The notes beneath the pieces were generated by a model that worked only from the letters and a program-made list of their open reading frames with translations, did not search any database and was not told the origin of the DNA. Below, piece by piece: positions 1 through 14,241 of a stretch of 64,000 nt of DNA (the stretch's first letter is position 1; every line of letters begins with the position of its first letter). Made by a program: the position numbers and the translations under genes. The stretch comes from Balamuthia mandrillaris. Its lineage: Eukaryota. The DNA is taken from contig JAVKOQ020000098.1 in assembly GCA_031835245.2 (NCBI GenBank), forward strand, positions 1-64,000. Reading direction: 5' to 3'.

Positions 1-230
1 GTTGAATCCAACCTCAAGAATAAAAGAGTCGGTGACAAGACAAGAAGTGTATTCAAGAGAATAGAGGAAGGACAACGGGAGTGAATCTCCGACGTTGCTT
101 CAAAGTACACCGAGAGAAAAGAGAAAAGGGAGAAGGGAAGGATGGAGGATACAAAAGAAAGGAGAGCTGAGGGTCCGGGACGGATCCAACATGAGGAGTC
201 TTAAGATAAGTGTTGGTGATTTTACTAACA
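1..230 (-). repeat. 3' LTR (truncated by window edge)
   Basis: Matches 4949-5178 with about 10 substitutions by eye; starts TGTTAG on the minus strand directly after the PPT. Confidence 0.93.
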
Positions 231-246
231 TACTTCCCCTCTTAAG
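231..246 (-). promoter_or_regulatory. Polypurine tract (plus-strand priming site)
   Basis: Minus strand reads CTTAAGAGGGGAAGTA immediately before the TG of the 3' LTR. Confidence 0.85.
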
Positions 247-3200
247 AAGAAGTAGAAGGTGAAGAGGATTGTTTGAGGAGGTCCCAATAACGTTTGACGA
301 GTTTGGGAGCATGGACATCTTTAGCAGGGATCCATTGGTTATCAGAATGTAGGTAGCCTTTCCAGTGAATAAAGTATTCACGCTTATTGGCTGGGCCTTT
401 GTGATCAAGGATTTCGTCTATTTCATACTCATCGGGTGGGAGGTCATTGATAGTAGAGTCCTCTGGGGGGGCAATGAGCTTCAGCTGGTTGGGGCTGAAC
501 TTGTCCGGGAGGGTAACGCCAGTGCTGTCCTGGAGGAGGTATGCACCACCACGATTGCAGCGGATGACTGTATAAGGGCCAGAGTATTCAGGAAGAGACT
601 TGAGAGACCTGGGAGGCTTGCATAGCATGACTTTGAAGCCAGCGGAAAATTCACGGAGTGGCTTAGAAGAATCATGTTGAGCCTTGATGTTAGAGCTGTG
701 CTTCCGAGTAGAAGATGCTGATGCTGGGTAGACAATATCATGCATTTGCTTGGTGTTCTTCAAGAGGAGGGTTTCAGTAGGAAGCTGGAAAGAGGAAGAA
801 GAATAGTCTTGTGGAGTGGTAGCTGGGCGACCAAAGAACAGTTGGAAAGGGGAAGACTTGTGGCGACAAGTAATGCGTTGGTTGATTGCATATTGGGCGG
901 CAGGAAGAAAGGTGTGCCAGTGAGACCAATCACTGTTAATGAGCTTGTTAAGGGTGTTACAGGCCAGCTTGACATGGCTTTCTGCAGCTCTGTTAGCTCG
1001 AGGATGATAGGCTGAGATGAACTGATGCTCAAAGCCAGAGAGTGTCTTGAGAGCTTTGATGACCGTGTTGATGAACTCAGTGCCGTTGTCTGACTGAAGG
1101 ATCTTAGGGAGACCAAAATCAGAGACAACTTGATAGAAGGTACGGGCCACATCTTTGGCAGTCTTGGCGTGGACTGGGCGGAGGGAAGTGAACCGGGTAG
1201 CGATGTCTGTGGTGACCAGAACGTAGTTGAAGCCTTTGGAAGAAGTGGGAAGGGGACCAAACAGATTGATGGCGATGTGATTGAAGGGGTAAGTAGCGTG
1301 GATGGTTTTGAGGGGATGAAAGCCGTGTTTGGTGACGTTGTGCTTAAGGCAGTCATTGCACTGTAGGCAAGTGCGGGAACAGTCAGCACGAAGAGTAGGC
1401 CAATAATAGCCTTCATTCCAGATCTTGATGAACAAGGTTTCTGCTCCGTGATGTCCTTCTGTGTGGAACAGCTGCAGGAGGTGTTTTCATTCAGAGGTGG
1501 AAGGGAGTTGCTTGTTGAGTCTGCCCTTGATGTGCCTGTTAAGAGTGAATTTGGCTGTGGATGGGGAGTTGTCAACCAAAGTGAGAGCCTTGAGGTCACG
1601 AGGTTTGCGCTGAGGCAAGCGAGGGGCGTCCAGAGGGATGGAGGGGGGTGTAAGACCACCGTTGTCCCAGAAGGAGCGCGGGTACAGCCGAGAGAGACAG
1701 TCCTCGAGAATCATGTGAACACCAGGGCGGTGGATGATCTTGAAGTTGTACTCTGAGATGAGGAGAGCCCAATAGTTGAGGGTGTAGTTCTTACTGTTGG
1801 AAGTGAAGAGGTAGAACAAAGCCTTGTGATCAGAATAGATCGTGAACTTGTTGCCGTAGAGCCAATCGCTGAAGGAGCGGACGGCGAAGAGAATGGTGAG
1901 CATCTCATGTTTGGTGGCAGGATAGTTGTGTTGGGCAGGGTTGAGGGCCTTGCTTGCGAACATGATGTACTGGTGCTTGTTGTTAGGTCCGATCTGGTAA
2001 AGGACGGCACCAACACCAAATTGGGAGGCATCAGTGCCAACCAAAAGAGGTAAGGATGGGTCATAGAGAGAGAGCACAGGTGGGTTGGATAAGATGCGCT
2101 TGAGGGCATCAAAGGCGTCCTGGCAGTCTTGGTTCCAATGGGGACGGACGTCCTTGATGTACCAGAGGGTGTCAAGGGGCTGAACGAGTTGGGCGAACAT
2201 GGGGATGAAGTCGTGGAGGTAGCCTGCAAAGCCAAGGAAGGATTGCATTTGCTTGCCAGTGGATGGTACTTCTAGGAGTGCAAAAGTGGAGAGCTTGTGT
2301 TGGTCGGGAAGGATATTGCTGCGATCAATGATAAAACCGAGGATGCAGAGGTGTTTGTACCCGAACTGACACTTCTCCTGACGGATATGGAGTCCCGCAG
2401 CGGTGAGAGTGAGGATAACACGGATAAGGTGCTCAATATGTTCTTCCACACTTTGGGAAATGACAGCTAGATCATCGATGTAATGAGAAGTGAACTCGGC
2501 AATAGCGGCAGTGACAACATCCATGAGGCGCTGGAAGTGTTGTGCAACTATCTTGATGCCAAAAATGGCGGCGACAAACATGTAACAACAACCGTTCCAT
2601 GTGAATGTAGTTTTGACGCAGTCTTCGGGAGCAATGGGGCATTGCGTATAAGACCAGATAAGGTTGAGGGCAGAGGCGATGAAAAAGCCTTGCACTTTGG
2701 AGATAATGCTGCGGATAGTAGGGATTGGGTATGTGAGGTCCAAGAGGAGCTTGTTCAGGAGGCGTGGGTCGATGCAGACACGCCACTGGGTAACATTGCC
2801 ATCAGCGTCCTTCTTGGGTACAACGGTGAGAGGAGAGTTCCAGGGACTGTTGGGTGGGGCGAGCACGATGATGCCGGTACGCAGCCATTCTGCCACTTGC
2901 AGATTGATTACGAGCATTAAATGGTGTGGGATGGGGTATTGGTGGCGAAAGACAGGAGGGTGGTCTCCAGTGTCCAGATGGAGAACTGCTTCGGGAAGGG
3001 TACAGGAAGGTCCTGTGGGTAGAGCCTCGTTCTCCTGGAGGTATTTCTCAATGGCTTCAAGAATACGCTTGTGGATGTGTTTCTTGACAGCTTTCACCAA
3101 ACGTTGATGTTGGCGTCGGGTGATGTTGTGGTCCTTGGAGCGGGGTAGTGGTTCCTCAGGGTAGTTGATTGGAATGTCTGTTATGCCCATGCCGGACTTG

Positions 3201-4898
3201 CGCATGAAGTCGCGGCCCAGGATGATCGATTGACCATCTGGTTGAGGCAATACAGAGAACATGTGATGGAAATGGCGTTTGCTGAAGCCAATAGCAAGTG
3301 GCTCTGTTTTGGCGACACATGTAGCGGTGGTTTCACGGTGTCCGAGTTTGACCGTGTAGTTGGCTTGCTTGGTTTTGGCATGAACTAAGTCAACAATAGA
3401 AGGGTCCATAAAGGAGTGGCTGGCGCCAGAGTCTATGACAGCAGTGATATGACAGCTGTTGATGGTCATCAGGGCACAGATAGGGTCGTTGGGTCCGGGC
3501 ATGTCGTTAGTGATGGTGATAGAGTTGAGAGCCCGTTGTGACTCATAGAACTCATTGTATTCCTCTTCATCACTGATAGAGTCTTGCTGCTCAATGGTAG
3601 GAGCAGGTGTGTTGCTCTGTTGCTGTGTAGAAGCCATGGAGTTGAGGGAACGTGAGCTGGGAGACGACTGGCGTGCTGGTAGTTGTGCGTGTGTTTGTTG
3701 CGGCAGTGTTGATGTGGGGTTGTGTGTTGTAGGAGCAAAAGATGAGGCTGGTGTAACAGACGTTGCTTGAGAAGACTGCCATTGTAGCCTGCGGGCCTTT
3801 TTTTGGCACTGATCTTCCATGTGGTTGCGTGTTTTGCAGTGTGCGCAAACAGCACCTATTGTGTGGGGTAATGGTGATTGCTGTTGAGGTGATTTGCTGT
3901 GACCTTTATCTTTTGAAGAAGGTTGGGGAAACTCTGACTCAATGAGGACTACGAGCTTGAAAGCAGCAATGACGTCTTGTGGCTTGTTGCAAAGAGTCTG
4001 TTGCTTGTACTTTGACTTGATGTGGAGAAGAAGGGCTCATCCAAAGAAAAAGGCTTTGAGGTAGTCATAGAAGGTGTCAAGAAGATGATTACAGAGTACA
4101 GAGTACTGATTGATGAGCTGATGAACGCTTTCACCAGGCTTCTGTCAAAACAACGTGACGGCCTCTATCATTGTGGCCTCAATGTCTGGAAGGTGGTAGT
4201 GCCGATGGAAGAGGTCTTGAGTGATGTTCCATGGTTGGTCTTGTAGAGCGCTAATGGCCCAAAGACATCCATCTCCAACAAGGGTGGTGATGAGGGCTTG
4301 CGTCCATCTGTCCTCAGGGTAGTTGTAGGCGTTAAGGTGATACTCCAGTTCCATGGTGTGAAGAGCGGGGTCCTGGCGCCTGCTGACGTCAAACTTAGGT
4401 AGTCCGGGGGGAAGGCGAAACATTTTCTTCTAAATAAAAAAAAAAAAAGTAGTTGTGTTGCTCTATGTTTCTGGAACAGAGGGAATGTGTGTGCTGTTGG
4501 AAGCAGTTGTGTTGTTGACGGAAATGTCAACGGGAAAGGGTGAACTTGAATGAGGTGACTGTATGGGAGAGATCTGTGGAACGGGCGAGGGAGGAGAAAC
4601 AGTGGCAGCGGTAGTGTTGCATGTGGAAGAGTTGCCTAGTATGGCCGAGGTGGATGCGAGGAACACAACAAAGTTGTCTATACGCTGTTGTAACCGTTCC
4701 ATGGCCTTTCTAGTGTGTTCTGCAGCTTCATCTAACTTGCGCTGTTCTTCTTCTTTGGCGACGCGTTCAGTCTCAGGGCAGCTGGGGATGTTGAGCTCAA
4801 GTTGAAAGGATTGTTGGAGCATGCGAAGGTACTCCTGTTGTGCCTTGCAAAGCTGTTCACAGAGGGTGTCGAGAGCAGCTGAGGCTTCCATGATGTGC
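242..4898 (-). pseudogene. gag-pol polyprotein, single reading frame interrupted by in-frame stops
   Basis: ORFs 4463-4924, 4145-4423, 1487-3820 and 242-1435 share one frame. Zinc knuckle CAHCKTRNHMEDQC, protease VIDSGAS, RT YIDD, RNase H TDASQFGVGAVL, integrase H..GH..C..C / SDNGTEF / AAE, chromodomain EYEIDEILDHK..YFIHWKGY..NQW. Stops: TGA at 4145, 4037, 1487; TAG at 4463, 4430. Confidence 0.93.
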
Positions 4899-4943
4899 AT
4901 AGCACAAAAGGGGATTTGAATCACTTATGTAAGTCAAAAAAAA

Positions 4944-5178
4944 TGTTGGTTGAATCCAACCTCAAGAATAAAAGAGTCGGTGATGAGACAAGAAGTGTAT
5001 TCAAGAGAATAGAGAAAGGACAACGGGAGTGAATCTCTGACGTTGCTTCAAAGTATACCGAGAGAAAAGGGAAAAGGGAGAAGGGAAGGATGGAGGATAC
5101 AAAAGAAAGGAGAGCTGAGGGTCCGGGATGGATCCAACATGAGGAGTCTTGAGATAAGTGTTGGTGATTTTACCAAAA
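4944..5178 (-). repeat. 5' LTR (235 bp)
   Basis: Direct repeat of 1-230; ends CCAACA on the minus strand; the 5' TG appears mutated to TT. Confidence 0.93.
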
Positions 5179-6921
5179 GATAGTAATGAGAAAGAATGGA
5201 CTTTGACACATATTCCTTTATACTGTGAACTAGGATATTGTCATGATTTCTTGAATTATACATTTCTTATAGATATGCCTGCTACTGCTGCTGCCAACAA
5301 AAGAAAAAGAGAAAATATAGTTGCTTCTTATGATACTATTAGAAATTATTGTTGGGCTTTAAAACGTTGGTTAAACTTTTGTTTAGCTTTATTAGAAAGA
5401 AAAGATTCAAGATTTAGTAGTATTAGAAGAAAACTTGTGGAAGACTTTGGAAAATGGTTAACATTGACAGCTGGAAATCATGCAGAACAAGCCATGGAAA
5501 ATAAACTATTGAGAAATAACTTGGATCATTTAGTTGAAGCAAAACAATGGATGACATTCTCTAACTTATTGGAAACTTATGATAAAATGAAGGTAAAACT
5601 TTGGGACCCACTGTTAAAAAAAGTAAAAAAACAGAAAAGCAGAAAATGCAGTTATAAAGAGTTGAAATGGGGAGGAATATTTACACAAATGACTTTTTGT
5701 ATTTTTGAAGTTCTTTTAAGATCAGAAAATCTTTATAATTTGGAATTAGGCAATACACTTGAGTGGAATGAAGAGAAACAAGTCTATAAAGCTAATTATA
5801 CTAAATTCAAGTCAGTCAACAAGAATTTACCTCCTTATAGCCCAGAGTTTAGCAAAAAAACTTCTCAAGTTTTTCGTGATTATGAGTTATATATCAGATC
5901 ACGGCTGAATCCACAAACTAACTTCTTTTTTTGTAATTCTTCTGGTCAACCACATACTAAACTTGGACATCGTATGTCCATAAAACTACAAGAAAGAACT
6001 GGAGTTTTTGGCATTACTCCTGGTAAAATTCGATGCATTATTGCAAGTACTGCTAGAGATCTTTCAGTTCCAGAAGAAGTCAGAGTCAAGTTAGCTTGAG
6101 CTATGCTTCATAGTTTTGATACTCATAATACACATTATACCAAAGTATCAGCTCAAAAGGATCATCAATTAGGTAGAAAAATTGTGAATCATATGCGACT
6201 TGTTATTCAACAAAACTTGAAGATAAAAGATCCAAATTGGTGGTGTAATCATGAAGAAGAAGAAGAAGAAGAAGAAGAAAAAGAAATAAAAGATGATATT
6301 AAGGATAATGGAGAAGAAGAAGAAGAAGAAGAAGAAGAAGAAGAAAAATGGCAATCTACTTATGATGATATAGTTTCATTATTTTTAAAAGATAATAGTG
6401 AAATTGATGATGATGATGATGAAAAACAAAAAGAAACACAAGAAGAATCTGATGTACTTCAAGAATTACAACAGCAATTTGAAGAAAATGAAGAAGACAA
6501 AGGTACTTTCTTTTTCTAGTTATTTTCTTTATTTTTAATTATTAATATAAATTCTTATTTCAATCAATAGCAGCAGATCAAGCTTCAAAAAGAAGATATA
6601 AAAGACTTAGAAGACTTACATTTATGGAGGAGGATGATGATGATGATAAATATTCTGAGACAAACTTATTATTGGATGAAAATGAAAATGAAGCAATAAT
6701 GACAACAGAAATGATGGATGTAGTAAAAGAAATATTGGATCATAAATGGGAACAAACAATTGGTGATAATGATAAGGATAGCAAAGTTGTTTTATATCAA
6801 GTCAACTGATGGAAAGGAGTAAATCATCCTATTTGGAATCAAGAAAAAGAATTACCTCAGAGCTTGATTATAAAGTATTGGAATAATTTAAAGGATCCAT
6901 TATTATTTTAATCTTTCATTA
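5179..6921 (+). pseudogene. Tyrosine recombinase (Crypton/YR-like) with acidic linker and C-terminal chromodomain; 5' end cut by the retrotransposon
   Basis: YR motifs LLRSENLYNL (R), KFKSVNK (K), ITPGKIRC (R), MLHSFDTHNTHY (H..Y) read across a TGA at 6097. A GT-AG intron at 6503-6570 joins in frame to KRRYKRLRR, then VKEILDHK..LYQVN*WKGVNHPIWNQEKELPQSLIIKYW (chromodomain-like, TGA at 6807). Confidence 0.8.
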
Positions 6922-7420
6922 TAGTAATGATTGTAGCTGTATCTACAACAATGATTGTTCAGGAAAGAAGGGAGAATTTATATTTTGTTTTTAAGTTGTT
7001 GTTCTGACTGATTTAATTATTGTTTGTTTTTGCAAGGTTTTGTTTTTTTATGTTGTGAAACATTTTTTTTTCCTTGTATATTCATTCAATATTAATGAAA
7101 CACCTTTTAAACAATCATTTATTCATTATTTATCTATCTGTCAATCCTTTTATTTGTTTGTTAATCAGTTTTATCAATATTTTCTATTATTTTTAAAATA
7201 CAAAAGTATGTATATAATTAATTACTCTGTTATAAATCATTTTTACTTTTTGTAAATAAGCTCATTGGATAGAGCATGTTGAGTTCTACAAGAACCTTTT
7301 TTATTTTTTCAAACAAAAGCATTGTATTCCTTTTTTTAATTAATAAACATTAATTTTCCCTTTTTTCAATCATTTTGACTTAGAGAATGTTGAAATTTTT
7401 TCTAAGTCTGAAATTTTTGC

Positions 7421-7460
7421 TATGGAACCAGGGAACCAAGGAGGTTCCTTTGGTTCCGTA
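7421..7460. repeat. Inverted repeat / hairpin (17-18 bp arms, 5-nt loop)
   Basis: TATGGAACCAGGGAACC-aagga-GGTTCCTTTGGTTCCGTA in otherwise very AT-rich DNA. Confidence 0.75.
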
Positions 7461-7598
7461 TTTTTGCACCTCAATAACTTTGTTACATCTTAATAAAACA
7501 CAAAACTGTTTGTTGTGGCAAATACTTTAAGTATTACTCTTCCTTTGGATGTATTTAAGTTTAGGATACACCTTATACCTGTCCTGCAAAGGGTAGCC

Positions 7599-8993
7599 TT
7601 AAAACAAGGCCGATTCCCTAACCCTAACCTTTTGAGTAGAAGGTATCAATAACCAAGGTTGAATTTTGAGGAGGAAGAGTTGGAAGAAGGAGTGTAATTC
7701 AGTAGGAAGAGGTACTTGATCTGTTTTTCTCATCCTCTTTTCCTTGCCTACTGATGCATAAAAACTTATGGTCTTGCTTCCATCTTCATTATTGCTTTCT
7801 TCATAGAACAATTTATCTCGATGAAGCCCTCCAACTACTTCTCTTCTAACACCTTGCATTAAGTCTGTTGTCATGTTGATGAAACAGCATTGAGCTTGCC
7901 ATGCTGCCTTCTTCAATCCCCAGAGTTGAATATCTTCTTCTTTTTCATCATCATCATCTTCTTCTTCTTTTTCTTTTTTTTCTTCTTCTTTTTCTTTTTC
8001 TTCTTCTTCTTCTTCTTCTGTTTCTTTATCTTTTTCTTTGGTCCTGTCATTGATGGACCCAAAATATGTTAGCATAATCTTATTCCATCTTCGCAAATTC
8101 CATTCGCCAAAAGCAAGATGTTCTTGAGGTACAAAGAATTGACCAGAAGATGTCATCTCACTTTCATTGTAGATCATGGAAGTATGTGTTCGTAGTTGCA
8201 TCTTTGCATCCTGAGCAGATTCATGCAAGAATCTTTGAGCTGCATTGATAGAAAGAAGATGCTTAGACATGGTCTCAAAAGTCAACAACCAATGTAACGT
8301 CTTTGATAGATGAAGCAGATGATTGCAAACTGTACTAGGACTGCTGTACTGTAGTTGATAGAAGTGATGAAATGCTCGAAGGCGGGTTTGATCAAATAAC
8401 ATCATTACTGAGAGCTCAAATAGCTCAACTGTCTTATCATCTTTATCATCTTTTTTTTTCTTCGTCTTCTCTTCTTCTTCCTCTTCTTTCTCCTCCTCTT
8501 CTTGCTCCTCTTCCTTCTTTTTTTCTTCTTTTTCCTTATGATTGCTCTCACACAATTCCACAAATCGAAAGAAGATGCCCAGAGTAGAACATAAGTCTCT
8601 TGCTGTTTGAATTATGCTTTTTGTTGCTATGCTTTGCTAGGCCTCATTTTTTTCTTTTGTTGTGATGTCCAGTTGTGAAGCATCTTGTCGTCTTCTCTTT
8701 TTATCTTTCTCTTCTTTTATCAATTGTCGTATTTCTGGTATTCGCTTTTTGAGTTGCTTCCAATTAATATCATAAAAATGTTTGTGATGTCCTCTTTTTG
8801 TTTTCTGGTCAACAATCAGAAGTTCTCATAATAGCTCATAGTTTGAATAGCATGTTGGATAAGAAGCACTAATTGCAACAGTTTGTTTTGCTAACAAAGC
8901 TTCTTGAAGCAATGAAGAAGAAGATGAAAAAGAAGATGAAGAAGATGAAGAAGATGAAGAAAATGTAGAGATGCTGTCTTCTGGTTGTTGCAT
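7599..8993 (-). pseudogene. Second, divergent tyrosine-recombinase-like gene (C-terminus truncated or degraded)
   Basis: Frame runs from ATG 8993 through stops at 8826 (TGA) and 8637 (TAG) into ORF 7599-8561. Core-binding-like segment SPSTVCNHLLHLSKTLHWL, catalytic-R-like QGVRREVVGGL, GKEKRMRK..VPLP..LFLLKIQPWL; no clear HxxR/Y after 7600. Confidence 0.6.
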
Positions 8994-9589
8994 ATCTATT
9001 ATAATGTTTTATAATAATAAGAAACTACAACAAACAACAAAAACAATAAAAACAACACTTTAGCAACAAACCGTTGGAAAAAAGATGGCTGTAAAAGCTC
9101 ACAATCAGCACTACAAGGTCTGAAAGTGCTCTGGCGTGTGGTTCTTTCTTCTTTCTTTTTGTTTTTCGCGAAAATCAAGTAGCATTTGTGCAAAATTTGT
9201 GCATAATACAGTTTTAGTGGTTTGTTTTACTAAAAATATTCTAACTCTGTAACACTTTATTAATACCTAACATAAAATATATCTTCTCATAGCCCTTGAG
9301 TTGCTCTTTAAGATGATACAATTATTATATTTTAAAAGCTGATTCTTAGGTCAAAATCGAGCATAGAACCCTAACCTTACTTTTTTCTATTCCCTCAATT
9401 CTATTCTCTGGAAATTCGGCCAGATATTCCCACTTTTATCCATTGGATATATGCCCAAATATTTCGTTAATAGAGGTTAGGAAAGTCTTTATTTGCTATG
9501 AACATTTTTGGTAGTGTTTTATTGAAAGTATCATGATCTTTTTCTCAGCTGAAGCATCATAACTAAACTATGAAAATAAAAACAACAAT

Positions 9590-10751
9590 GAGTCCTGGGA
9601 CCAAATTTCACCTGCAAATTTATGTGACTGGGACCATGGTCCCAACCATATCAAAAATTGTGTGGGTTGGGATATGGGAAATGTTCAATACAAAGAAGAA
9701 AAAAATAAGAACTTTATTCAAAAAAAGCTAGAAAGCAACTATTTCATCTCAAAGTTGTGTACACCAGCAGCAAGCTTCAACACATAGCCTTGCTGCTTTG
9801 GAGTTTCTCTCCATGGCTGAGATAAAGCTTTCCATAGGCCAAATGGAGATTTCACTCAAGCACGGATTTGACGGATCTGAGCATTGCACTTTTTGGTTGC
9901 TTCAGAGAGTTTTGGCTGTTTCTTGCCTGGCTCAGGTACTGGGGTGATTATTTTCACATTTTCCAATGTGTCTTTGGGCAGAGAGAAGTGGCAATCTCCA
10001 ACAATACAAGCTCCTTTCCACTTTGTATCCAAGGTGTCTTGGTGGTCCAAAACCCAATGAGCATCATAAGTCTTGGGAGAGTAGGGTCCCCAAAACCCAC
10101 GAACCCTGTCTTTAAGGTCAAAAATGACCATATAACGGGTTCCTGGGCAATTCTCCTTGAAGGACCAGAGTTCTGACTTCTTTGAGGTGCTGCGTCTTCC
10201 TTCCAAGGGTAAGTCAATGGAGTCCATTGTCAGGTTGACACCTGCCAGCCATTTGGGACGTGGAACAGCAGTTGCAGCCTTGTGCCAGCTTGCCTTTCCT
10301 CCTCGCAGGATCTGTGCCTTTGCCCACCTGGCTGTGATGCATCGTAGGATTTTGGAGTTGTGTTTGAGGGACTTTTCACTTACACCAAGCCAGTTTCTGG
10401 TGTCTTTGCTCAACTGGTTGTAGCCTTTAGCACCTAGGTCCTTGTAAAGTACCACCAACACCAAGTTCTGGATGAAAGGTCCTTTCTTCTGCAATCCCCA
10501 TAGCTTTGGCTTTTTTTGTTTTACAAACTGCATAATAGACATCAGAGTTTTCTTTTTTATTGCTTTAGCTACCTTCTTCTCCACACCCTCCTTTGTTTTT
10601 GGCATGATAACGTTGTTTGCTCTTCTTCGCTTGCTTCTATGTCTTGTTCAAACGGATAAAAACCGTATCCCAACAATCACAATTTATGGTATGATTGGGA
10701 CCATGGTCCCAATCACATAAATTTTGCAGGAGAAATTTGGTCCCAGGGCTC
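9590..10751 (-). mobile_element. PIF/Harbinger (IS5-like)-type DNA transposon, 1162 bp, about 62-bp TIRs, AAT target duplication
   Basis: TIR GAG(T/C)CCTGGGACCAAATTTC(A/T)CCTGCAAA..GGGACCATGGTCCCAA at both ends; AAT at 9587-9589 and 10752-10754. Confidence 0.9.
9739..10605 (-). pseudogene. DDE transposase (DDE_Tnp_4/IS5-like), inactivated
   Basis: LTMDSIDLP, WSFKEN, GPYSPKTYD, IVGDCHF, NAQIRQIRA*VKSPFG (family-typical R.xVE.xFG with TGA at 9856 and E to K); frame continues to TAG at 9739. Confidence 0.85.
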
Positions 10752-10818
10752 AATATGAGCATGGGAACACCAGTTCAGCTGTCAAAATCCATGCATGGCT
10801 AAGGAGGTGTACAAAGAG

Positions 10819-13610
10819 TTATTCTTGCACAACCATTGGCTCAACCAGCATTTGTACTTCCTTGAGGAAGGAAAGCAATTGGTCAGTTGATTGGAAATAA
10901 AACATATGTGGTGAGTGATGAGTACCAGGCAGGAGGTCTTGAATTTGTTTCCTGAGTGATTCATAATCTCCCTTTTGGGCAGTAGTCAGCATGGAGGACC
11001 AAATTGTTGGTGCCAAATGGTAACGCCAAAACTTGATGATCTTTTCTGCCTTCTCTTCTACACGTATTTCCTCAAAGGTGGTGAAGAATAGAGTCTGGAA
11101 GACACTCTTCACTACCATCTCTAGGTCATGAGCAAAGGAAGGTTCATAGGTCTTATTCAAGTGCCAGCACTGAATAACATGCTCTGGGGCATATTGCAAG
11201 GCACCAGAGAACTTCACCTTTTTTCCCACTTTAGTTGCGCAGCCCCAGTCATTAAGAAATACCTGATGAGAGGTGTCATAAATTCAATGGTGATGACGAG
11301 ACACAAACACAAGGGGTAGTGTAGTTGAACAAGTCGGCTAATGTTAGTTCCAGTCACACGGCAAGAAGGAAGAGAACAGAAGAAGAGAGAATGAGGACAA
11401 CATTACCGTTCCAGTGTCTAGATGTCGAAAGCAGTTGGAGAGACGCACGTCCCGATGGACCCATCCATAGTTGTGGTGGACCTGCTCAAGAATATTCACC
11501 AGTTGACAGAAATCATCTGCCATGGCAAGCATTGTCTGGCGGTCGTGGCCCTGTCAGTTTGAAAATAATAAGAACTGATAATGATAATGATGATAATGAT
11601 AATGGACATACAGTATTGCAGTTGGTACAGTGGGAAAGCCGAGAAGCAAAGTGTCCTCCGACAGGACTAAGTAACAGCACAAGCTGCTCCTCATCATCAG
11701 CAACGAGTTTTGGGACTGAAGGCACCAAGTCTTGGACCTCCTCCAGGCAACGTTTTTCATTCTGCAAGTGATATATATTGTCCGCCGAGTTGAACCTTTT
11801 AACGACCACTGTATCACCTATTACCATCATGATCATCATCAGTAATCATGAACTCATCTATTGTTGTTGTTGTTTGTTGTTGTTGTTGTTGTTGTTGTTG
11901 TTCTTGTTCTTCTTCTTCTTCTTCTTCTTCTTCTTCTTCTTCTTCTTCTTCTTCTTTTTCTTCTTCTTCTTCTTCTTCTTCTTCTTCTTGTTCTTCTTCT
12001 TCTTGTTGTAAAACTCGGGGAAATACCTTTGTACTGGCCGCTGTACACGACAGCAGACCCGCCAATGCCAAGAAGCTCATTCATGATGACTGGCTCTTCA
12101 TCGATGACGATGTCTTCTGGTAAACCGTGTGTAGCTTTGTTGCTCTGAAGCAGTCCTAGTAGCCACTTGCCACCATCGCTGTGTAGATGAAGGATGGGGC
12201 TCTCGGTCCACTGATCTGTGGTTGAGAGCTTCTGTAGACGGAAGAACTGGATTAGACAGCCATCCGTGAGGAACCCATTAACCACACTACGGTAGGGCTG
12301 GTATTCAAGCAGGAGCTCTTCGAGGAAGGAGTGTAGATGACCCTTCTCAGAATCGTCAAAGTCCTCCTTTGTCGCTGTACGCCTTGCTTTGACATCGCCC
12401 AGCAATGTGATGTAAAATATGCTCTTTGGTTTGCCCTTCAAGTAGCCCACAACGTCTGGCTTGCGCCTGCCGAAAGACACCTTGTTGTAAGTATCCACCA
12501 AGGTGATAGGCAGATCCGGAAAGAGCTTCACAAGGAGCTTCAGTTGACTTGACCAGTAGGGCTGAACGACCTTACTTTCAGACGCGCCTGCGTCAGGATA
12601 CCCACGAGGAGGAAATAATGGTTTACCCCCCTTTGCTTTTCGTTGGTTGCGGCGGATAGGGAACCATGGCTCAACCACTTTGTTCTTCACTGGTAATCGC
12701 TGGTATCTCTCTGCAAAAGTTGACGGAGTACTCCCTGGTGTTTTTGTGGTTATTATCATCATGTGGTTGCTTGTAAAAATTCAAAGCGAAAAGGAAATAA
12801 TGGGTATGGACGCACGTTCTGTCCTGTCCCTGTGAGTGGCCTTTTGCATTTCGCTTGTGGCCTTTTGCATTTCGCTTGTGGCCTTTTGCACTTCGCCCAT
12901 CATTCTTTCTTCCAGCCGTTTAATGTCTGGAATGCATTGACGCAACCCTTTAGGGACAAAAAACACACATAAGAGTCAGAGGGAAGGGTAGGAACCTACC
13001 GACATTAGTCACAGGCCGGAGTGGACTGCCTGTGGCAGGTGTTGGATCTTACCAGTGAAAGAGACAAGCGGTGAGAAAAGGACAAGGTAGTGGAAAGGTT
13101 TGGTGAAGGGAACGGAAATTAGCGAGTAAAATACGACAAGAGGAGGGAACGCTCACCTTTGCCTTTTTCTAGTAGGCTCACATGGAGATTTGAAAAGGGA
13201 GCCTCTAGACCAGAGCTAGTGGACGCGGCAGTACCACGATCGGTCCCTTTTGCGTGTTTGTTTGTTTGTTTTTTTTGGTTTGGTTGGTGTTTTAGTTCTA
13301 CTGCACCACCATAATGACCAACAAAAACCATACCATAATGTTCTTGCAGCCTTTCAGTGAGGGTATTGAGAAGAGCATGCAACATCACTTGTCGCTGCAC
13401 TAAGGAGGGCAGTAGGGCTGTAGCCGCGCTGCGCAAGAGCTCGTCCGACTCCGCCCGTATTTCCGTCTTCACCTCCTGGACTTTCTCCTCTACCTCCTGG
13501 ATTTTCTCCTCTACCTCCTGGATTTTTTGCTCTACTTCCTGGATTTCCGTCTTAATGGCCTGTCTATCCACGCGCGTGGCCTCTGTCTTGCTCTCCACCG
13601 GCACCTGCAT
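10819..13610 (-). CDS. Crinkler/RHS-like effector architecture: coiled-coil header + PD-(D/E)xK nuclease-like domain + protein kinase (multi-exon)
   Basis: Heptad repeats IQEVEEK; RKPDVVGY..LLGDVKARR..GFLTDG; kinase motifs LGIGGSAVVY, VVVKRF, VHRDVRLSN, FLNDWG, GALQYAP, HDLEMVV across GT-AG introns. Confidence 0.75.
12836..12896. repeat. 21-bp tandem repeat, about 3 copies (heptad-coding)
   Basis: GTGGCCTTTTGCATTTCGCTT repeated; encodes EMQKATS on the minus strand. Confidence 0.85.
13471..13546. repeat. 21-bp tandem repeat, about 3.5 copies (heptad-coding)
   Basis: ACCTCCTGGATTTTCTCCTCT-like units encoding IQEVEEK on the minus strand. Confidence 0.8.
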
Positions 13611-13920
13611 CGCGTTCGTCCTCTTTAGTCTCCCTGTTCCTTTGTTTTTTTTTAGAGTGTGTTTTAAGGGAAGCTTCGGAAAGTTGGGGTCCAGAAAACT
13701 GGTAGAAAACTGGCTATTTTTGTCGAGCAGAGAGAGAAAATAGGTGCGTTCCACGTGGAACAGGTTTTGTGTGGACTTCTCTGCTAGTGTGACACCCTGC
13801 TTCTGTCACGCTTTGTTATCGACTTTTTCGTCACAACAGTATCTCATGGGGACTACATAGCGAAAATAGTCATGCTAGCCAATCCTCAACGGATTAACAC
13901 AACAAATCAAGAAAGGGGAA

Positions 13921-14241
13921 GTCGTGTTGCACGTGGAAGAGTTGCCTAGTGTGGCCGAGGTGGATGCGAGGAACGCAAGAAAGTGTTCTATGCGCTGTTG
14001 TAACCGTTCCATGGCCTTTCTAGTGTGTTCTGCGGTTTCGTCTAACTTCTCCTGTTCTTCTTCTTTGGCGACGCGTTCGGTCTCAGGACAGCTGGGGATG
14101 TCGAGCTCAAGTTGAAAGGATTGTTGGAGCATGCGAAGGTACTCCTGTTGTGCCTTGCGAAGCTGTTCACGGAGGGTGGGGCTTCCATGATGTGCGTAGC
14201 GCAAGAGGGGATTTGAATCACTTATGTAAGTCAAAAAAAAA
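13921..14241 (-). mobile_element. Orphan fragment of the same LTR retrotransposon family (T-tract + gag 5' end, no LTR)
   Basis: Aligns by eye to 4611-4943 with a deletion of about 12 bp; ends at the same A-run. Confidence 0.9.

Follow-up and report, generated by a model that had tools for sequence, protein, structure and literature searches.

Among the described systems, Cryptons come closest to the mobile elements reported here. As outlined in section 3 of PMC3212892 and in PMC13465315, a Crypton transposes by means of its tyrosine recombinase (YR), which excises a circle and integrates it. The CryptonF, S, A and I groups (Kojima and Jurka 2011) resemble the elements of Balamuthia mandrillaris in being eukaryotic, dispersed and seemingly YR-only, in carrying an additional C-terminal domain, and in having copies that are frequently interrupted by other transposons, as in the present case. 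Table 1 of PMC3212892 contains no amoebozoan host, and Balamuthia is an amoebozoan. Chromoviruses join an integration enzyme to a C-terminal chromodomain; such domains read methylated H3K9, and the integrase tails do the targeting (PMC3059260). YRs also occur in the Starships (PMC11162782) and the ciliate Tec elements (PMC3212892, section 3), which like the present ones are eukaryotic DNA elements, and Cre, XerH/XerC/XerD and the phage integrases share the two-domain fold.

We analyzed a window of 64,000 nucleotides (contig JAVKOQ020000098.1, positions 1 to 64,000), in which a block at 5177-9588 has a GC content of 0.31 versus 0.46 in 14500-64000. A sequence-only reading had described this AT-rich block as distinct from the host genes, which the composition bears out, and as a candidate mobile element with two very different YRs. 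The two genes, here YR1 and YR2, are indeed very different, and BLASTP does not align them significantly (best E 2.2); the catalytic motifs of the two family profiles align, in a non-significant comparison (probability 0.3%, E 0.19). In our view the locus probably consists of independent mobile elements stacked in one another, with a Ty3 retrotransposon lying in a YR1 element and the latter in a YR2 element. Each YR element has one end in the window, YR1 lacking its left part there and YR2 its 3' part, and no contig in the sequencing runs covers an entire YR element.

The two recombinase genes and their families

Exon 1 of YR1 (5179..6502, forward strand) lacks its N-terminus and encodes a binding domain, a catalytic domain and an acidic linker. 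The R..K..GKIR..H..Y tetrad noticed earlier was confirmed at R5719, K5809, K6025, R6031, H6109 and Y6136 (residues R149, K179, K251, R253, H279 and Y288), which agree with the R-K-(H/K)xxR-(H/W)-Y set. One stop in the exon, at 6097, is missing from the copies in runs X6 and X1. The exon is 48% identical to residues 116-470 of P0011, a relative of 629 aa, whose Atlas model matches Phage_integrase with a TM of 0.66. The nearest predicted structures to YR1 are eukaryotic YR clusters of the ESM Atlas (chordate YR-SET, chlorophyte and diatom; TM 0.73-0.81 by query), as model-to-model matches only, below the bar for a family name. The chordate YR-SET cluster is another case of a YR fused to a chromatin domain.

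A GT-AG intron of 68 nt is predicted at 6503..6570 on the same strand, from the splice junction of annotated model P0008, and would speak against an RNA step. One RNA run, sampled at 3%, gave 9 partly fitting reads and 0 splice joints, too few for any conclusion on expression. Exon 2 (6571..6911, forward strand) has a stop at 6807 and three bases that are absent from the copies in three runs. It encodes a degenerate chromodomain-like tail, which has no Pfam Chromo match and an incomplete aromatic cage, and is matched weakly, with 15.2 bits, by a profile built from 7 chromodomains, a value equaled by 0/500 shuffles. The second exon and its tail were overlooked in the first reading. Four YR1-family proteins, on contigs of four differing sizes, are 96-100% identical, and four annotated copies make up a 50%-identical subfamily. 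Near-identical YR1 copies free of both stops are present in one run and are a candidate for an excision assay; near-identical YR copies could also be alleles or haplotigs instead of transpositions.

On the reverse strand, the window carries the 5' two-thirds of YR2 (7630..9008), with a binding domain, R7847 and K7739, and stops at 8826 and 8636. The gene is cut at 7630, inside the catalytic domain and ahead of the second Arg and the Tyr. The YR2-family profile covers the window at profile positions 9-342 of 620; its search found the second Arg and Tyr absent from the window, and an extra match of 68 profile positions (484-551 of the profile), located elsewhere in the window, was taken as low-complexity sequence. 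The gene had been described as tail to tail with YR1; the motifs quoted for it were found, and it has no tail here. Among the family rows with a residue, the first Arg is conserved in 19/20, Lys in 19/20, the second Arg in 15/17 and Tyr in 18/19. The whole R-K-R-Y set is present in 9/31 rows (10 rows span all four columns), and environmental relatives keep it. Both His positions are replaced, by Ile/Tyr/Leu and Asn, which is a difference from Cryptons.

The model of the YR2-family relative P0017 (pLDDT 82.5) aligns with XerH at Z 15.5 (rmsd 4.1, 299 aligned) and with Cre at Z 15.4, and Foldseek gives E ~2e-3 to XerH/Cre. The recombinase fold that had been proposed for checking is present in this relative, with Z ~15 to both. 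As far as models of relatives indicate, both genes belong to the tyrosine recombinase superfamily and have the YR fold. They differ from Cre, Xer and the phage integrases in their 10-13% identity and in having acidic linkers, an intron and a chromodomain tail.

Chromo matches at or above the Pfam cut-off were found in P0013, P0015, P0027, P0029 and the Ty3 integrase. In P0013, of the YR2 family, the match has an E of 1.2e-9 and the cage residues Y, W and Y are all kept; a single-sequence model of this protein (pLDDT 43.5) was left out. By sequence, the YR2 family has an HP1-type chromodomain, and histone binding is predicted. The three cage aromatics of the P0013 tail are a likeness to the chromoviruses of PMC3059260, which differ in using a DDE integrase instead of YR chemistry; the YR elements show no LTRs or RT of their own in the parts in view.

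Neither family matched the eukaryotic YR profiles in Pfam. The Crypton-linked profiles DUF3504, GCR1_C and NDC10_II were unmatched in P0001 and P0002 (E up to 2), P0011-P0013 (0.5) and 28 relatives (0.001). The Balamuthia YRs have a chromodomain or chromodomain-like tail instead of GCR1_C, and neither a GCR1_C tail nor a DUF3504-type YR was found that would place them in CryptonF or CryptonA. Cryptons have direct repeats of 4-6 bp at their two ends and lack long terminal inverted repeats; terminal direct repeats were not seen here, with one end per element in the window. The YR is the sole mobility gene, without RT, in the parts inside the window. DUF3435 was unmatched in the Pfam scans and no cargo was seen, which does not fit a Starship, where a DUF3435 captain occupies the 5' end and cargo is present.

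Relatives of the two families numbered 0 in viral contigs and 0 in metagenome contigs, and the prokaryote genomes gave one 40-residue match (L001). When P0001, P0002 and profile A4 were searched by sequence against solved structures, no YR came up, PHROGs gave nothing relevant, and an alignment search returned 2 known proteins and no more. That the YR genes are all that can be seen here of longer retroelements, or of giant or Polinton-like DNA viruses that had integrated, is highly improbable in our view. The block is AT-rich, further genes could lie in the unseen halves of both elements, and among viral proteins the YR2-family model is closest in fold to those of Tetraselmis virus 1, NIOZ-UU159 and Feldmannia viruses (E ~1e-4), but these matches are 11-14% identical and scarcely above phage integrases. 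The lack of relatives in viral contigs, the predicted spliceosomal intron in YR1, an element end within 0.5-0.7 kb before or after each gene, and the absence of capsid, packaging ATPase and polymerase families among the 16 reading frames scanned in the window all argue against such remnants. The literature searched, short of Repbase and most subscription papers, listed nothing on YR-chromodomain DNA transposons or Balamuthia YR elements. No description of either family was found, and an earlier account may exist.

Element ends and the junction of YR1 with YR2

On the right, the YR1 element probably ends in two CCCTAA telomere-type repeats (7616..7629, forward strand) abutting the YR2 break; the telomere repeat of Balamuthia is given as TTAGGG (10.1101/2025.02.25.640156). 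About 170 bp inside this end lies a palindrome (7424..7457) of two 14-15 bp arms and a 5 bp centre, a loxP-like likeness to the Cre group and a candidate recombinase binding site. The hairpin reported earlier between the two genes is real at this position (z -4.2; 0/200 shuffles fold equally well) and occurs once in the window. A second hairpin at 7377-7410 was rejected as not significant, being matched by 22/200 shuffles, and Rfam gave no match. In run X6, two separate high-depth contigs cover 7411-7618 and 7411-7625.

The DNA past the YR1-side end differs between contigs, with unlike flanks at 7630 in 2 X4 contigs (agreement 0.68), an unlike flank at 7616 in 1 X9 contig and 1 joint to LTR sequence in X3. 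Moreover, two contigs of X6 and one of X4 show, as loose ends, an intact YR2 continuation over 7630 that codes for the missing part, and the annotated relatives P0009, P0013 and P0014 also run intact across the matching position. Since in other runs YR2 is intact across 7630 and the DNA left of 7630 leads into unlike flanks, a separate YR1 element most probably ends at 7629.

The varying flanks bear directly on a composite element with two convergent recombinases, in which an internal deletion would have removed the 3' part of YR2 from this copy. Such an element, whose YRs could divide integration and resolution between them or form an XerC/D-like hetero-tetramer, seems quite improbable, because a fixed partner predicts one continuation past the YR1-side end. 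It would agree with the depth, which is raised without break across the block in contigs of runs X1, X3, X4 and X6 (contig depth here is not copy number), and with the likeness of YR1 and YR2 in domain plan, composition and the AACCCTAACC decamer. The decamer occurs 2 times in the window versus 0.09 expected, near the right end of both YR modules (second copy 9367-9376), and apart from it the end regions show no likeness above shuffles (131/300, 68/300). In X1, a contig has 7624 joined directly to 9229; this further point of contact of the modules also favors the composite.

However, annotated pairs are never adjacent: among 5 YR1-family and 5 YR2-family proteins none are neighbors, and the smallest difference in accession number between the families is 1113. 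This test covers annotated proteins and overlooks the window's own YR2, so that unannotated pairs would escape as well; to this extent the co-occurrence proposed earlier was not observed. The YR2-family proteins, 74-97% identical, are on contigs other than those of the YR1 family, and the relative searches gave no Balamuthia YR2 diverged to match the four copies of the 50%-identical YR1 subfamily. At 1.0-3.7 kb, the contigs of the 17 environmental representatives consulted are too short for linkage. By this weak test, a fixed joint arrangement of recombinase genes of the XerC/D, Tn554 or RIT type was not found, and there was no sign of YR1 and YR2 acting as an XerC/XerD-like pair. Both YRs of the proposed element stand and look mobile, but a single two-YR unit is unlikely, since the junction cuts YR2 and the neighbors differ. 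A pile-up in a transposon-rich patch, named earlier as the refuting case, fits best, and the junction differs between runs. Run X9 covers YR2 and leaves YR1 nearly bare; missing contig cover was not counted as evidence.

It is also possible, if unlikely, that two neighboring single-YR elements were joined by deletion or repair at a telomere-type seed, with loss of the YR2 3' part. The two telomere-type repeats at the junction are oriented to cap the cut YR2, an X6 contig has the same repeat joined to YR1 near 6607 like a healed chromosome end, and a deletion could also explain the X1 joint 7624-9229. The YR1-side end has non-telomeric, differing flanks in the 2 X4 contigs, which speaks against this, and the telomere-type repeats therefore seem to be a property of the YR1 element. 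The biology would be the same as in a nested stack; the history of the junction would differ.

On the other side, the upstream region of YR2 and the likely outer end of its element occupy 9009..9465 (reverse strand). At 9466, 3 X1 contigs depart into differing flanks and the summed depth drops in X1, X4 and X6, so that the repeat ends near 9465 and not at 9380, where the right edge had been placed.

Neighboring elements and a possible order of insertion

The left edge proposed at 5179 is the edge of a Ty3 LTR inside the YR1 reading frame. This chromovirus-type Ty3/gypsy LTR retrotransposon (1..5178, reverse strand) is inserted into the YR1 gene and has LTRs at 1-231 (starting just beyond the window) and 4944-5178, identical at 220/231 positions. 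It matches RVT_1, RT_RNaseH, rve and, in its chromodomain integrase, Chromo (E 4e-11), and its LTRs enclose the sole RT in view. In DIRS, Ngaro and VIPER retrotransposons, RT and RNase H are internal and the repeats are inverted or split direct ones; the YR elements show no RT in the parts within the window. An X3 contig matches the window from 5178 onward and is preceded by 1360 other bases. To the right lies a PIF/Harbinger-like DDE transposon with TIRs (9590..10751, reverse strand; DDE_Tnp_4 E 2.4e-6), whose inverted repeats (9589-9677/10663-10752) are 88% identical and flanked by AAT on both sides. A joint 9549-10751 in X1 and X6 bypasses it. With its own inverted repeats and an empty site, the DDE gene is no Tec-like partner of the YRs, and the transposon is separate from the YR stack.

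In the nested stack that we prefer, the YR1 element would have landed, in opposite orientation, within a YR2 element and there inside its recombinase gene, and the Ty3 retrotransposon would later have landed in YR1. Each element would carry one YR and move alone, Crypton-style: the YR would bind sites at the element ends, for which the 7424-7457 palindrome is a candidate, and excise a circle that would integrate via a few bases of homology. By binding to methylated histone tails, the C-terminal chromodomains would bring the three elements together in one silenced chromatin region type, and this shared pull would account for the pile-up. For the 3' part of YR2, missing here, we predict a place to the left of the window, past Ty3 and the YR1 element's left end. 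With that left end and the other YR2 half outside the window, a clean insertion of the YR1 element is a proposal. We infer mobility, element ends and chromatin targeting for the YR elements.

A broader and rather doubtful proposal is that amoebae harbor undescribed YR-only DNA transposons of at least two deep lineages, guided by chromodomains into methylated heterochromatin, bearing repeats of telomere type at the ends or close by, and with mutual parasitism in which YR1 would home into YR2 elements. The junctions cited for such homing are 7630 in the window and 7624-9229 in X1. If the reading as chromodomain-bearing YR elements holds, histone-guided integration, known in LTR retrotransposon integrases, also arose in tyrosine-recombinase DNA elements, and Crypton-like elements reach Amoebozoa in two lineages overlooked by current profiles. 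A two-recombinase eukaryotic element would have weighed more, and the evidence does not back it.

Decay of the window copy by CpG deamination was considered and rejected, with 3/17 picked transitions versus 18% expected in a subset of the compared rows. Several Balamuthia copies bear unrelated annotations: Chromobox protein 5, secreted ookinete protein and cyclic nucleotide-gated channel.

Two recombinase families in an AT-rich block

The AT-rich block carries two facing tyrosine recombinase (YR) genes, YR1 (5179-6911, forward strand) and YR2 (7630-9008, reverse strand), and Balamuthia mandrillaris NCBI proteins are the closest relatives of both. These genes represent two apparently undescribed YR-chromodomain families in Balamuthia, and the two-recombinase element proposed in the sequence-only reading is not supported. 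The block itself agrees with that reading: its GC of 0.31 (5177-9588) versus 0.46 (14500-64000) sets it apart from the host genes, BLASTP found no similarity between YR1 and YR2, which had been called very different, and the hairpin placed between them was confirmed at 7424-7457 and is significant.

The catalytic tetrad claimed for YR1 is present (R149, K179, K251, R253, H279 and Y288, with one stop read through), and a 68-nt intron and second exon are predicted. The Balamuthia protein P0008 (QOT17_010988) matches YR1 at 94-100% in four pieces, which assigns the window to this amoeba. Pfam gave only a sub-threshold integrase SAM-like match (E 0.017, and 0.0015 for the relative P0011), while the Atlas model of P0011 matched a Phage_integrase cluster with TM 0.66 and eukaryotic YR-like clusters with TM 0.73-0.81. 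In one of these, a chordate cluster with 197 members, the YR1-like fold (TM 0.78) is fused to a SET domain, which gives a further case of a YR linked to a chromatin domain.

The motifs quoted earlier for YR2 are also present. A family search of 1.84 billion representatives yielded 29 proteins with E of 0.001 or lower; two come from Balamuthia, and the 17 others looked up proved to be environmental proteins, unnamed or hypothetical, whose contigs are short. Lack of a recombinase fold in YR2 was one of the conditions under which the sequence-only reading would fall. The model of its relative P0017 (31-row alignment, pLDDT 82.5) resembles XerH (Z 15.5, rmsd 4.1, 299 aligned) and Cre (Z 15.4), and the catalytic residues are conserved (counted over rows that have any residue at the position: R 19/20, K 19/20, R 15/17, Y 18/19), so a recombinase fold is indicated, as modelled for relatives rather than the window's broken copies. 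Foldseek of the P0017 model against PDB returned zero rows at E 0.001, and both His positions are substituted in the family. The database names of three family members (P0010, P0013 and P0014) are misleading, and in the gene models P0009 and P0013 the segment encoding the second catalytic Arg is removed as intron. The first-Arg motif of YR2 also has a 40-residue match, at 50%, in a metagenome-assembled bacterial genome (L001:10001-10120); this is probably an ordinary integrase.

Edges of the block and nesting

Contigs of other sequencing runs (X1, X3, X4, X6 and X9 among them) were compared with the window; this evidence covers part of the rows (e.g. 18 of 162 loose ends), and counts are among the matches listed. 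At the left edge, an LTR at 4944-5178 pairs with another at 1-231, YR1 lacks about 115 N-terminal residues found in P0011, and X3 and X4 contigs carry a further 1360 and 766 bases ahead of the point where their match begins, with no LTR sequence matched there among the matches listed. Therefore the Ty3/gypsy chromovirus (1-5178, reverse strand) inserted into YR1.

In the middle, the match of YR2 to its family breaks off at 7630, and its missing catalytic half is absent from the window. Elsewhere YR2 continues across 7630, in at least two X6 contigs and at least one X4 contig, with sequence that codes for what follows in P0009. On the left side of 7630, the DNA leads to unlike flanks in X4 (at least two contigs, agreement 0.68) and X9 and, among the matches listed, to LTR sequence in X3; this stretch is continuous elsewhere, in contigs over 7084-7268 and 7239-7440 (both X4) and 7227-7626 (X9). 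At the right edge, at least three X1 contigs part from the window at 9466 and differ in their flanks from there on; depth falls at this point in three runs. The block is most likely not one unit, and that it might be the remnant of a virus or larger element is very improbable.

The break at 7630, the continuation of YR2 across it, the unlike flanks and the Ty3 insertion favour nesting, with Ty3 in a YR1 element in a YR2 element, which we consider reasonably probable. Against it stand an X1 joint of 7624 to 9229 (at least one contig), which could reflect either local loss of DNA or another YR1 insertion into YR2, the depth raised over the entire block, and the decamer AACCCTAACC near the right ends of both modules. 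That deletion joined two YR neighbours is unlikely. A true two-YR element is more doubtful, with YR2 cut at 7630, differing neighbours on either side, and five YR1-family and five YR2-family accessions lying at least 1113 accession numbers apart, in a test that missed the window's own YR2 and thus failed its positive control.

Chromodomain tails and mode of movement

Pfam Chromo matches the YR2-family protein P0013 (E 1.2e-9), in which the three cage aromatics are kept, and 3 of 28 scanned relatives, many of the remainder being fragments. The YR1 tail had no Pfam Chromo match; on a small chromodomain profile it scored above 500 of 500 shuffles, with an incomplete cage. The integrase of the adjoining Ty3 has a C-terminal chromodomain as well. 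Literature searches on YR-chromodomain DNA transposons found none, and the available portions of PMC11162782, PMC13465315, PMC3212892, PMC3537659 and PMC4738411, in which chromodomain was looked up, contain no such element.

The YR fold of relatives, the breaks and the differing neighbours are results; how the elements move is a proposal drawn from known systems. In the Crypton model, as parts of the sources describe it, the single YR of an element binds its ends and cuts via phosphotyrosine, so that the element leaves as a circle and enters a new site through short homology (PMC3212892 sections 3 and 5; PMC13465315). The YR1 and YR2 elements, each presumed to carry one YR, would move likewise. 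The palindrome at 7424-7457 has roughly the arm-and-spacer shape given for YR sites in portions of these papers (PMC3212892; PMC13465315). The likeness to Cryptons is one of proposed action, not a class assignment from ends or phylogeny; neither family matches the CryptonF, CryptonA or Starship profiles. In chromoviruses the integrase is held at methylated H3 by its chromodomain, though localisation does not always follow tail type (PMC3059260, in part). By analogy, the tails of YR1, YR2 and Ty3 may tether to methylated H3, because of which the elements would gather in the same chromatin and insert into one another; the convergent arrangement would then be an accident of insertion direction.

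Copies and neighbouring elements

Four proteins of the YR1 family share 96-100% identity although their contigs all differ in length; at least two X6 contigs cover 5221-6237 without the stop at 6097, at depth 244-314 versus about 62 in host genes (contig depth is not copy number); and YR1 copies from three runs, among the matches listed, lack three bases at 6806. This suggests recent, near-identical copies and hence mobility, although some of them may be alleles. At least one X6 contig joins telomere-type repeats to YR1 exon 2 sequence (window 6607-6632); a chromosome may have broken within a YR1 copy and been capped there. A deep joint in X3 and X4 (6616-7044) skips 427 bases, its shorter side having only 26 letters; possibly it is an internally deleted non-autonomous YR1 derivative.

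The first 14 kb form a transposon patch, with intron-rich ordinary genes beyond. Balamuthia telomeres are TTAGGG, and its transposons are numerous, fragmented and unannotated, according to part of the preprint 10.1101/2025.02.25.640156. CpG is depleted in 5177-10752, with observed/expected of 0.21-0.25 versus 0.78 where genes are dense, the pattern expected if the repeats were once methylated. A PIF/Harbinger-like DDE transposon (DDE_Tnp_4; 9590-10751, reverse strand) has inverted repeats of about 88 bp holding a palindrome, AAT on both sides, and a gene interrupted by stop codons; it is separate from the YR stack, and X1 and X6 have its empty site. At 10800-13800 (reverse strand) lies a multi-copy gene that is broken: a DUF6826 match (E 7e-10) precedes kinase-like segments spread over several frames, and a coiled-coil segment lies upstream; it may resemble Crinkler/RHS-type nuclease-kinase genes. 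A Ty3 fragment at 13921-14240 is 89% identical to the Ty3 5' internal region 4611-4943.
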